Shown here: one piece after another, positions 3,913 to 5,613 of the stretch | Layout: each line of letters opens with the position of its first letter | Position numbering within the stretch: position 1 is the first letter of the stretch | Sequence record: NC_054919.1 | DNA length: 64,000 nucleotides | Direction: 5' to 3' (one strand) | Source: Escherichia phage vB_EcoM_G4507 | The notes under the pieces: generated by a model | Seen by the model: the letters and a program-made list of their open reading frames with translations, nothing else | What the model was told of the DNA's origin: nothing | Database searches by the model: none | Made by a program: the position numbers and the translations under genes

Positions 3913-3945
3913 ATACCAAAAAGCCCCAACCTTTTGGTCGGGACT
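3913..3945 (-). terminator. intrinsic terminator after the internal protein gene
   Basis: Minus strand CCCGACC-AAAA-GGTTGGG hairpin followed by GCTTTTTGG. Confidence 0.6.
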
Positions 3946-3952
3946 AAGAATG

Positions 3953-4426
3953 TTATTTGATTTGTTTAGCAGACCAAATGCGGTCTTTAATAATTTTTTG
4001 GATGTCTTCAACATACTCGAGAGAATGAGCATGTGGGTTATCTTTAAAGCTATGAGCACGAGCTAGCTTTTGGCCTTCAGTTTTGATTACTAAAAGCTCT
4101 TTAAGGATAGCTTCATATTTGGAGATAATTCCTTTAACGATATTTTTTTCTTGTGCGACTTTAGGATCTGCTTTAGGAGCAGGTTTACCCGAAGCCTTTG
4201 CAAAAGCAGCGCCAGTAGCAACTAAACTTTTCCAGGCCATACTAACTGCATTTCCCGTAAATCCTTCCGCTTTCATGTCGCGTGCGAACTGGAATCGTGA
4301 TTCATCAGAAGCATCTTTGTAAGAATATTTACCCGCTGCAATGGCTGCTTTTGCGACAGCTTGAATTTCGGTGCTAGATGCTTCATTTAACACCGCTTCA
4401 TTTAAAAATTGAGTATATGATTTCAT
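3953..4426 (-). CDS. internal head protein (IPII/IPIII family) with N-terminal capsid-targeting sequence
   Basis: Read from internal ATG 4424-4426 (AGGA RBS) of track ORF 3953..4648; N-terminus MKSYTQFLNEA resembles the T4 internal-protein targeting sequence MKTYQEF..E-A with LxE motifs; the longer track ORF would run through a hairpin and tRNA-like RNA. Confidence 0.65.
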   Translation of the reverse strand: MKSYTQFLNEAVLNEASSTEIQAVAKAAIAAGKYSYKDASDESRFQFARDMKAEGFTGNAVSMAWKSLVATGAAFAKASGKPAPKADPKVAQEKNIVKGIISKYEAILKELLVIKTEGQKLARAHSFKDNPHAHSLEYVEDIQKIIKDRIWSAKQIK

Positions 4427-4464
4427 CTTATTTCCTGTTTTAATTTGTAGATTTAATATACTAA

Positions 4465-4472
4465 TATTTATA
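4465..4472 (-). promoter_or_regulatory. T4-type late promoter (TATAAATA) upstream of the internal protein gene
   Basis: Minus-strand TATAAATA ~40 nt upstream of ATG 4426. Confidence 0.5.
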
Positions 4473-4502
4473 CCAAAAAGCCCCAACCTTTCAGTCGGGG
4501 CT
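4473..4502 (-). terminator. intrinsic terminator at the 3' end of the structured RNA region
   Basis: Minus strand CCCCGAC-TGAAAG-GTTGGGG hairpin followed by CTTTTTGG; near-duplicate of the 3913-3945 element. Confidence 0.55.
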
Positions 4503-4808
4503 AAGCCTTGCGGCAACCTTGTCGGGGTTCCACCTGCTAAGGCAAGTGTTTGTACGAAACGCCGGGATTCGAACCCGGTTATTAAGTAGTTGACGCTACT
4601 CAATATTTTAAAAGGCCATATCTCGACCATATCCGAACGTTCCGTCAAAAACGCTACTCGGTTTACGGCAAAGATATTTCCTCGAATCGATAATTCGGTG
4701 CGCCGTTTCTGCTGTGATAGTAAAGAGCCAGAACACAGTAAAACTGTGGGAGGAAACTATACTCCAGGGAACATCAGTCCGACGACTTACCGGTAGCGAC
4801 CCGGTTTC
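4503..4808 (-). ncRNA. candidate structured small stable RNA(s) with a tRNA-like T-arm, between ORF 4809..5159 and the internal protein gene
   Basis: No convincing ORF; minus strand carries GGTTCGAATCC T-loop (plus 4561-4579) flanked by a possible acceptor pairing CGGAACG/CGTTTCG but no canonical D/anticodon arms, several short hairpins, and ends at a hairpin plus U-tract (4473-4502). Placement next to the tRNA array recalls the small stable RNAs of T4 (recollection only). Confidence 0.35.
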
Positions 4809-5159
4809 TTAGTATTCTTTTAAAGCATCAACCTGTTCACGACGTTTACGCCATAAATCAATTACTTCATACGCAGATTCAGCATTTCGAATTGGACGGC
4901 ATTTATATAAAGACTTGTGATTTTGATATTGTGTAGATAACGGAATTTTATCTAAAAGGTCTTTACGTTCAAAATATTCGTAACCATCTAAACCAAATGA
5001 ACGATTTTTGAGAAATTGCCAATGACCAAATTCGTTTTCGACATAAACATAATCTGCATGCTGATAAAGCAAATTAATTACACGTTCAGAAATAACAGTA
5101 TCATTATGATTAAAATAGAATGTTAAATCATGAACTACTAAATAAACATTACCTTTCAT
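4809..5159 (-). CDS. hypothetical protein, 116 aa, immediately downstream of tRNA-Arg
   Basis: Track ORF; ATG at 5157-5159 with GAGGA RBS at 5164-5168, 18 nt after the tRNA-Arg 3' end; no recognisable motifs. Confidence 0.5.
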   Translation of the reverse strand: MKGNVYLVVHDLTFYFNHNDTVISERVINLLYQHADYVYVENEFGHWQFLKNRSFGLDGYEYFERKDLLDKIPLSTQYQNHKSLYKCRPIRNAESAYEVIDLWRKRREQVDALKEY

Positions 5160-5333: not shown

Positions 5334-5447
5334 ATTAATACCTACTCCAACAATCATGATGTCTTCACACGAAATTAAGAGAAGAGTGATCAGTTCAACC
5401 CCTATAATCGCGTCAAGTAGATATTAATGTGACAGTTGTCACAAATT

Positions 5448-5526: not shown

Positions 5527-5613
5527 TGGTGGGGAGTGATGGAGTCGAACCACCCGAGTCGCAATGACAATGAATTTACAGTCCACATCGCTACCTCTAC
5601 GGGATAACTCCCC
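5527..5613 (-). tRNA. type II tRNA with long variable arm, probably tRNA-Tyr (anticodon GTA)
   Basis: Minus strand 87 nt: acceptor GGGGAGT/ACTCCCC, anticodon loop CTGTAAA on a stem with two G-U pairs, variable-arm hairpin GTC-ATTGC-GAC, T-arm GGTGG-TTCGACT-CCATC, encoded CCA; D-arm fold is non-canonical, so isotype is tentative. Confidence 0.55.

Follow-up and report, generated by a model that had tools for sequence, protein, structure and literature searches.

Two stable RNA genes at the end of the tRNA operon

We analysed a stretch of 64,000 nucleotides (nt) from Escherichia phage vB_EcoM_G4507 (NC_054919.1), hereafter the window, and in particular the interval at 4503-4808, read on the minus strand, which lies downstream of the transfer RNA (tRNA) cluster. 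Comparison with phage T4 leaves little doubt that this interval is the distal end of the tRNA operon, with orthologues of the T4 stable RNA genes rnaD and rnaC, a structured trailer and the operon terminator (Table 1). The feature has been described before and is nothing unusual in a T-even phage. The region is kept in some 750-810 phage records (812 of 50,697 by blastn), and the T4 features lying under the match (AF158101.6) are rnaC and rnaD. The order in T4 is tRNA-Arg, rnaD (species 2 RNA, 119 nt), a 6-nt spacer, rnaC (species 1 RNA, 139 nt) and an unannotated trailer; the original record of the T4 tRNA region (X03016) gives the same two RNAs as species 1 and species 2, together with a potential terminator. 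An earlier note, made from the sequence alone, had predicted one or two small RNAs of about 120-150 nt, of a T-even kind whose function is unknown, and the alignment of the interval to these two T4 RNAs bears this out. During T4 infection both RNAs have been detected by northern blot and RNA-seq in an omics study of 2022, which classed them as late RNAs of unknown function (PMC9697503).

The rnaC gene of the window is 97.8% identical to that of T4 over its full length (138/139 nt). It differs by a 1-nt deletion in the A-run between the hairpins P2 and P3 and by two substitutions, all of which leave the structure unchanged, and, as in T4, it follows rnaD and precedes the same trailer and terminator (AF158101.6, X03016). 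Its minimum free energy (MFE) fold is the same as the T4 fold, with the conserved P1, P2, P3 and T-arm, and it reaches 152.6 bits (E = 6e-37) with a covariance model made from 14 homologues, the window's own copy among them. With the rnaD genes of T2, EC121, HP3 and others the window's copy shares 99-100% identity; with that of T4 it shares about 79%, because a central domain of about 50 nt differs. Two forms of rnaD exist, distinguished by this domain, and the window carries the T2-type. Outside it the 5' hairpin, closing stem, junctions and 3' end are identical to T4, and the gene is likewise directly upstream of rnaC. In T4 the 3' end of species 2 reads ...GCGCACCA (X03016) and that of species 1 ...CGUUUCG (X03016) or ...CGUUUCGUA (AF158101).

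A difference of context, not of the RNA, is found at the upstream side. In T4 and NBG2, rnaD starts 2-7 nt after tRNA-Arg (2 nt in T4), whereas in the window rnaD does not directly follow tRNA-Arg, an open reading frame (ORF) of 116 amino acids intervening. The same ORF is present in BW-1 and in two of the loci compared (L008, L018), and a diverged version in JS09, L016 and L017; T2-like phages, too, have tRNA-Arg and rnaD parted in this way. Since this ORF and not tRNA-Arg precedes rnaD in the window, the 5' end of rnaD must form otherwise than in T4; a near-consensus late promoter, TATAAATG, lies inside the ORF at 4907-4900. On the downstream side, the trailer is also kept in T4, NBG2 and others, where the T4 annotation leaves it outside the mature RNAs, and the terminator is annotated as such in NBG2 and as a potential one in X03016. 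The intrinsic terminator that the earlier note had placed at the 3' end is present, as are the two short hairpins to which it had drawn attention, CACAG-UUUUA-CUGUG in rnaD and GCC-GCAA-GGC in the trailer; all the features that it listed exist, and none is more than 1 nt from its given place.

Table 1. Features of the tRNA and stable RNA operon of the window and of the gene downstream (5' to 3' along the minus strand; RNA positions are those of rnaC)
Feature	Position	Strand	Basis or remarks
tRNA cluster	6192-5178	minus	ARAGORN, 11 tRNAs; Rfam tRNA model confirms 10
tRNA-Arg	5253-5178	minus	ARAGORN
116-amino acid ORF (phrog_3355)	5159-4809	minus	between tRNA-Arg and rnaD
rnaD orthologue (T4 species 2 RNA), T2-type central domain	~4812-4697	minus	aligned to T4 rnaD positions 4-119
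rnaD stem A, 5' hairpin ACCGG-GUCGCUA-CCGGU	4805-4789	minus	co-varies: GCCGG/CCGGC, ACAGG/CCUGU, AUAGG/CCUAU
rnaD core, 5' side: stem B GUCGUCG (4786-4780), junction GACUGAU, B2 GUU (4772-4770), CCCUG (4769-4765)	4786-4765	minus	homologue table
rnaD hairpin D, CACAG-UUUUA-CUGUG	4748-4734	minus	conserved in T2-type T-evens, phiWec188, POP17
rnaD core, 3' side: B2 AGC (4713-4711), junction AGAAA, stem B CGGCG (4705-4701), bulged C, ACC tail	4713-4697	minus	homologue table
GAAUUA spacer, rnaD to rnaC	4696-4691	minus	read from sequence
rnaC orthologue (T4 species 1 RNA), 138 nt	4690-4553	minus	full-length alignment to T4 rnaC
rnaC P1, 5' strand CGAUUCG (RNA positions 2-8)	4689-4683	minus	pairs with 4561-4555
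rnaC P2, long irregular hairpin (positions 9-78), apical loop UGAC (4647-4644)	4682-4613	minus	compensatory in 20/24 pairs above the 3-bp base
rnaC P3, 10-bp hairpin (positions 86-111), loop CGUCAA, GUCA at 4594-4591	4605-4580	minus	8/10 pairs compensatory
rnaC T-arm CCGGG-UUCGAAU-CCCGG (positions 113-129)	4578-4562	minus	2/5 pairs compensatory, 98.9% of cells paired
rnaC P1, 3' strand CGUUUCG (positions 130-136), then UA	4561-4555	minus	pairs with 4689-4683
3' trailer, hairpins CACUUGC-CUUA-GCAGGUG (4548-4531) and GCC-GCAA-GGC (4514-4505)	4552-4503	minus	fold z = -2.9
Intrinsic terminator of the tRNA/stable RNA operon	4502-4474	minus	10-bp stem 4502-4479 with 6 G-C pairs, then UUUUU
Late promoter TATAAATA of the 157-amino acid gene	4472-4465	minus	perfect T4 late-promoter box, 3' of the terminator
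157-amino acid gene (phrog_2280), own ribosome-binding site, ATG at 4425	4425-3953	minus	starts MKSYTQFLNE

That the interval instead codes for protein, either as an N-terminal extension of the head-protein-like gene downstream (ORF 3953..4648) or through small ORFs at 4608..4736 (minus) and 4590..4796 (plus), is scarcely credible: these ORFs exist, many GenBank records annotate a 'hypothetical protein' here and two of the translations match PHROG families 24262 and 28391, but the frames across rnaC hold stop codons in T4 and several other genera, the 1-nt indel between the window and T4 shifts two of them, substitutions preserve the RNA helices, and the downstream gene has its own start codon, ribosome-binding site and late promoter past the terminator. 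As these signals follow the terminator, the 231-amino acid ORF 3953..4648 is only an in-frame upstream extension of the 157-amino acid gene, and the verdict of the earlier note that the interval holds no credible ORF stands. The two PHROG families, whose ORFs run across rnaD, rnaC and the trailer (4427-4736), are probably artefacts of ORF calls on conserved RNA genes, since the frames are not conserved. In many phage records rnaC is mis-annotated, as hypothetical proteins, as a 'tRNA-Met' of 95 nt or as 'tRNA-OTHER'.

Secondary structure of rnaC

Homologues of rnaC were collected from eight genera (Tequatrovirus, Mosigvirus, Gaprivervirus, Karamvirus, Moonvirus, Tegunavirus, Gelderlandvirus and Marfavirus), and the main counts of base pairs refer to 19 sequences aligned to the covariance model, an alignment that is fitted to that model. 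The earlier description of the interval as highly structured agrees with the folding of the minus strand, in which the fold energy of rnaC lies well below that of shuffled sequences (z = -4.1). The MFE folds of 16 homologues taken singly give one architecture, with the locus L014 as the sole exception. Among the 19 sequences, 92.6% of the cells are paired and 33 of the 53 predicted pairs show compensatory changes, and sliding the 3' partner by 1-3 columns brings pairing down to 36-46%. A plain MAFFT alignment of 14 sequences gives similar figures (91.7% paired, 26/49 pairs compensatory).

The fold is that of a tRNA mimic in the top half only. The termini of rnaC form a 7-bp acceptor-like stem, P1, stacked on a canonical T-arm, while two hairpins, P2 (70 nt) and P3 (26 nt), take the place of the D and anticodon arms. 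An A/U-rich linker of 8 nt joins P2 to P3, a single nucleotide separates P3 from the T-arm, and the T-arm abuts the 3' strand of P1. At P1 pair 4/134, 8 sequences have A-U and 11 have G-C. Midway along P1 are two U-U mismatches, for which Tegunavirus has U-A and C-G. In Gelderlandvirus, Marfavirus and locus L014 most of the P2 sequence is replaced, with the hairpin and its apical loop retained, and the P3 loop too. In covariance-model searches, the parts of the model to which tRNAs align are P1, P3 and the T-arm. The T-arm had been recognised in the earlier note, which placed it within 1 nt, at 4561-4579. That note spoke of a tRNA-like 3' domain; a tRNA-like element is indeed present, but because the acceptor-like stem uses the extreme 5' end of the RNA, it is built from both termini.

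The same note had proposed another acceptor-like pairing, between CGGAACG (4644-4638) and CGUUUCG (4561-4555). The two strands can pair, but the pairing is not one kept by evolution, with no compensatory pair and 7 of 14 sequences broken at one position; CGGAACG belongs instead to the apical helix of P2, as its 3' strand, and there co-varies with GCGUUUU. This pairing is also the internal acceptor stem of the tRNA-Lys(UUU) with a long variable arm that ARAGORN calls at 4645-4552 (94 nt), and that such a thirteenth decoding tRNA should be genuine is hardly to be believed. The call draws on an 8-bp ACGGAACG/CGUUUCGU pairing, on the canonical T-arm and on the heptamer CUUUUAA, which is identical to the anticodon loop of E. 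coli tRNA-Lys, and one homologue is annotated as tRNA-Met and another as tRNA-OTHER. Against this, RF00005 gives no match at the gathering score or at E <= 10, the best match of the clan being tRNA-Sec with 16.8 bits against a threshold of 47 (E = 1.4); the anticodon stem is only 71% paired and the 'anticodon' varies between homologues; and the T4 RNA is 137-139 nt long and starts 45 nt upstream. The 3' end encodes no CCA, the genome reading ...CGUUUCGUACAAAC. On covariance-model score and covariation, both the ARAGORN call and a class-II cloverleaf drawn by hand were rejected. Of the hallmarks of a tRNA, the canonical T-arm and T-loop are present, whereas a cloverleaf above threshold, covarying acceptor, D and anticodon stems and an encoded 3' CCA are absent. 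The earlier note had likewise seen no cloverleaf, in agreement with the failure of the Rfam tRNA models and the poorly supported D-arm and anticodon-arm helices.

Nor is rnaC a transfer-messenger RNA (tmRNA), as ARAGORN calls none, no tag-coding region is found and the Rfam match is a 17-nt T-arm fragment of 10.1 bits against a threshold of 47. With Rfam 15, only tRNAs pass the gathering threshold in the window; the covariance-model search of this interval that had been suggested in the earlier note, run on 4400-4900 at E <= 10, returned chance hits but none that passed a family's threshold. A wider search for rnaC in two IMG/VR scans and one metagenome pattern scan, filtered by the covariance model, recovered only the T4-like lineages already seen and ordinary tRNAs. 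Two further candidates were rejected. A 19-bit match to the rnaC model in locus L059 is a tRNA-Met behind a terminator hairpin, and a stretch of Kosakonia phage 305 that might be a divergent rnaC, placed downstream of its rnaD-like element and with complementary loops UUGGA and UCCAA, has neither a covariance-model match nor a stable fold (z = +0.75).

The apical loops of the two hairpins are complementary. UGAC in the P2 loop (RNA positions 44-47) can pair with GUCA in the P3 loop (97-100), and every position pairs in all 19 sequences, with both partners changed independently in two lineages (Tegunavirus, UGAU/AUCA; Marfavirus, UGGC/GCCA). This complementarity and covariation suggest a kissing interaction between P2 and P3, which we regard as probable. 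The metagenome pattern scan yielded no third lineage bearing on this contact. An invariant GGCC beside the junction of rnaC is a candidate partner of the T-loop.

Structure and distribution of rnaD

The rnaD RNA consists of a 5' hairpin, a closing stem GUCGUC[G/C]/[C/G]GGCG, purine-rich junctions, an inner stem of 3 bp, an invariant CCCUG and a variable central domain that can be swapped. The core stems are paired in 98.4% of cells and three of their pairs co-vary. Seven sequences have G-C and seven C-G as the innermost pair of stem B, and the inner stem B2 occurs as GUU/AGC, GCC/GGC, GGU/ACC and GUU/AAC. Stem A is expanded in Certrevirus and Kanagawavirus, where it is closed by AGGGU...ACCCU, and the place of hairpin D is taken by CCAUG/CAUGG in POP15 and by CCCG/CGGG in CR8. 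Two known motifs were considered at the junctions. A hammerhead-like reading (CUGAUG...GAAA, GUC) was dismissed on inspection, as there is no helix I and box G is paired in stem B2. For a K-turn, the tandem G-A pairs are possible in most members and absent in PM2 and Kosakonia phage 305, and no claim is made.

Elements resembling rnaD were found outside the T4-like phages, in the Phapecoctavirus phiWec188 (Stephanstirmvirinae) and in the Certrevirus phages POP17, POP15, CR8, F2M1E and phiTE (Vequintavirinae), and also in the T4-like phages PM2 and Kosakonia phage 305. The copies always lie inside a tRNA cluster, mostly immediately upstream of a tRNA, and the T2-type central domain with hairpin D is common to the window, Phapecoctavirus and some Certrevirus copies. 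A search of Rfam with the rnaD-like loci of other phages gave no family matches.

Several observations were made at these loci. Directly upstream of the element of phiWec188 lies a tRNA-like sequence of about 78 nt (419-497 of locus L069; 147-225 of L081), whose acceptor stem of 7 bp (GGACUUG/CGAGUCC) is perfect and which also has a T-arm-like hairpin; neither ARAGORN nor Rfam calls it. The 'Pseudomonas' phage PsgM04F is nearly identical here to the E. coli phage, with one mismatch in about 190 nt, which is odd for its stated host. In Moon, Kosakonia phage 305 and PM2, the same clusters hold another conserved non-coding block upstream of tRNA-Met (L005, about 440-690; L086, about 700-840, minus; L073, about 560-690), which reads UAUACGAGGCAGUYCAGAGAGAUGAGU...GGUCCUAU...AAAUGCCGAGGAC...GUUCCCAC...CUACUUG and resembles in part the hairpin region CCCACAG...CUGUGUUCU of rnaD.

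On the minus strand of the window, further features of the neighbourhood are of note. The 157-amino acid gene is flanked by two near-identical terminators, at 4502-4479 and 3945-3922 (region 3915-4502), and since T4 lacks this gene at the matching place, it has the look of a cassette that entered by recombination between the duplicated terminators. Its start, MKSYTQFLNE, resembles the capsid-targeting sequence of the T4 internal proteins. In the tRNA cluster, tRNA-Tyr(GTA) at 5527-5613 is called by ARAGORN and absent from the Rfam tRNA hits at the gathering score; in the published escape from Septu, the tRNA that stands in for the cleaved target is the T-even tRNA-Tyr (PMC13096335). A gap of 114 nt between tRNA-Asn and tRNA-His (5334-5447) breaks the otherwise tight array and holds a promoter-like sequence (CTTGACG...TATAGG-like); NBG2 lacks both tRNA-His and the gap.

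Processing and possible functions

The two RNAs have been known in T4 since the 1970s and the question of their function has been open ever since; a 2010 review and a 2025 paper (PMC12685909) still state it as unknown. The question has now become easier to test, with a structure of rnaC backed by covariation, a defined core and a wider range of rnaD, and a mutation of phage BW-1 in an rnaD hairpin. Moreover, Rfam has no family for either RNA and mis-annotation of both is widespread, so that curated models would clean the annotations of hundreds of phages.

The arrangement of the locus offers a route for the maturation of both RNAs. In Karamvirus, Moonvirus and Gelderlandvirus, rnaC stands directly between two tRNA genes with spacers of 4-9 nt, and a short AAUUA-type spacer, which also parts neighbouring tRNAs within the window, lies between the 3' end of the tRNA and rnaC. 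In the T-evens, the 3' end of rnaD with (A/G)AAUUA stands where the 3' end of the preceding tRNA would be. In view of this tRNA-like placement and spacing, and of the minihelix formed by the acceptor-like stem and T-arm, the 5' end of rnaC would probably be cut by host RNase P, a cut that would also free the 3' end of rnaD. Host exonucleases could then trim the 3' ends of both RNAs back to stable stems, and the outcome would be two nuclease-resistant RNAs. Such a course accords with the processing by host tRNA enzymes that the earlier note had proposed.

A lead to function comes from experimental evolution. When the T4-like phage BW-1 was evolved on E. coli ECOR34, the only mutation shared by three independent lines was in rnaD, and virulence rose from 0.17 to 0.98 (PMC12685909). 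We mapped this mutation (164264, T to C on the record strand, A to G in the RNA) to position 4736 of the window, where G4736 pairs with C4746 in hairpin D. The ancestor reads CACAG-UUUUA-CUAUG, and the change turns a C-A mismatch into C-G; the evolved allele, CUGUG, is the consensus and the sequence of the window. As the evolved allele repairs hairpin D, a defect of this helix appears to be costly on one natural host and tolerated on K-12, as one would expect if the RNA were an accessory factor for host range or counter-defence. Two associations point in this direction as well. Elements like rnaD occur in the tRNA clusters of three phage subfamilies, and in phiTE the element is followed at about 20 nt by pseudo-ToxI, a locus acting against abortive infection; genes of T-even tRNA clusters, moreover, serve against tRNA-cleaving defences such as Septu (PMC13096335). 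Since neither rnaC nor rnaD can decode, any role would be that of a decoy or binder. We propose, tentatively, that both are accessory RNAs which the phage can do without and which help it on some host strains more than on others. Their most likely action would be the binding or titration of a host factor, either one that handles or attacks tRNA or some other component of defence. In a more specific and equally tentative form of the proposal, rnaD and perhaps rnaC would be RNA-based determinants of host range or counter-defence, rnaC being a tRNA mimic locked by its kissing loops that titrates a tRNA-acting host factor.

Several points weigh against this account of structure, processing and function. 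T4 deletions of the tRNA region grow normally on laboratory strains; they are viable, and any role of rnaC or rnaD must therefore be conditional. The annotated 5' U of rnaC is 1 nt upstream of the first P1 pair, and the 5' end annotated in T4 is 1 nt upstream of the RNase P site expected from a 12-bp acceptor/T-arm ruler. The loop-loop contact rests on only two lineage events, and it might form between molecules or be a coincidence. From BW-1 comes a single mutation on a single host, and it could act in cis, through transcript stability, termination or the downstream gene. The closeness of the phiTE element to pseudo-ToxI is an association only. Finally, the literature assigns no function to rnaC or rnaD by experiment, and reviews and recent papers describe their function as unknown (PMC9697503, PMC12685909).

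It is unlikely, yet worth serious consideration, that the region works only in cis, by processing, by protection of the tRNA transcript from 3' exonucleases or by termination, the stable RNAs being by-products. Its position at the 3' end of the operon with a trailer and a terminator fits such a role, as do some 50 years in which no function in trans was found and the possible action of the BW-1 mutation through transcript stability. Yet loops are invariant or co-varying across genera and three subfamilies (UGAC/GUCA in rnaC; CCCUG and the junctions in rnaD), a constraint that exceeds the needs of a spacer and thus disfavours such a role, and in Karamvirus, Moonvirus and Gelderlandvirus rnaC lies in the middle of the array and not at its 3' end.

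It is improbable that rnaC mimics tRNA in translation or tRNA metabolism without any part in counter-defence. In that case it might occupy a modification or CCA-adding enzyme, RNase P or an aminoacyl-tRNA synthetase, and the maturation of host versus phage tRNAs would be biased as a result. The acceptor/T-arm minihelix is the module that such enzymes recognise, rnaC has a canonical T-loop and is embedded in tRNA arrays, and the GG of the invariant GGCC by the junction could act as a D-loop. However, P1 carries two U-U mismatches in most phages, no CCA is encoded, nothing ties rnaC to any such enzyme, and T4 tolerates the loss of its tRNA region.

Mimicry by rnaD of the type III antitoxin ToxI, neutralising toxins of the ToxN family, is very improbable. 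It would follow the precedent of pseudo-ToxI of Pectobacterium phage phiTE, an RNA antitoxin mimic by which ToxIN abortive infection is overcome (Blower et al. 2012, PMC3475682). Between the rnaD sequence UCGCUACCGGUAAGUCG and the pseudo-ToxI region of phiTE, 15 of 17 positions agree, in phiTE the rnaD-like element adjoins pseudo-ToxI, and E. coli plasmids carry ToxIN with similar repeats. The likeness is nevertheless at chance level against E. coli ToxI repeats (317/500 shuffles as good) and marginal against Pectobacterium ToxI (31/500), rnaD contains no repeats of the tandem 36-nt ToxI kind, and T4 counters ToxIN by the protein TifA, being otherwise sensitive (PMC13096335). In phiTE (NC_020201.1; 225-490 of locus L082), the rnaD-like element is followed by an apparent tRNA 5' fragment UGACUCUAUAGCUCAGC, 1.5 pseudo-ToxI repeats and a tRNA 3' part (T-arm GGUUCGAACC ... 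CCACCA), and the pseudo-ToxI escape locus thus appears to sit inside a disrupted tRNA gene.

If rnaD and perhaps rnaC are determinants of host range or counter-defence, as conjectured above, rnaD would be a structured RNA family common to tRNA clusters of large myoviruses from at least three subfamilies, and growth on particular natural E. coli strains such as ECOR34 would hang on an intact hairpin D. Two T4 RNAs orphaned for 50 years would gain a function, and RNA decoys would join the anti-defence repertoire of the T-even phages.

Three known systems provide points of comparison. With canonical tRNAs and the tRNA-like domain of tmRNA, rnaC shares the acceptor-like stem formed by the two termini on a 5-bp T-stem, with the loop UUCGAAU, and, like tRNAs, it sits among tRNA genes with tRNA-like spacing; it differs from a canonical tRNA in its lack of a D-arm, of a 7-nt anticodon loop and of an encoded CCA, and in the two U-U mismatches of the acceptor-like stem. 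Phage pseudo-ToxI, as found in phiTE, is likewise a non-coding RNA in the neighbourhood of tRNAs that affects success on particular hosts, whereas rnaD is not built of tandem repeats, resembles ToxI to no significant degree and has no known toxin partner. Phage tRNAs counter tRNA-targeting defences (eLife 2023, PMC10264068), and tRNA-Tyr of T6 acts against Septu (PMC13096335). Such tRNAs belong to the same operon and follow the same logic of a benefit specific to the host strain, and rnaC shares their tRNA-shaped surface; unlike rnaC and rnaD, they are functional decoding tRNAs that replace cleaved host tRNAs.

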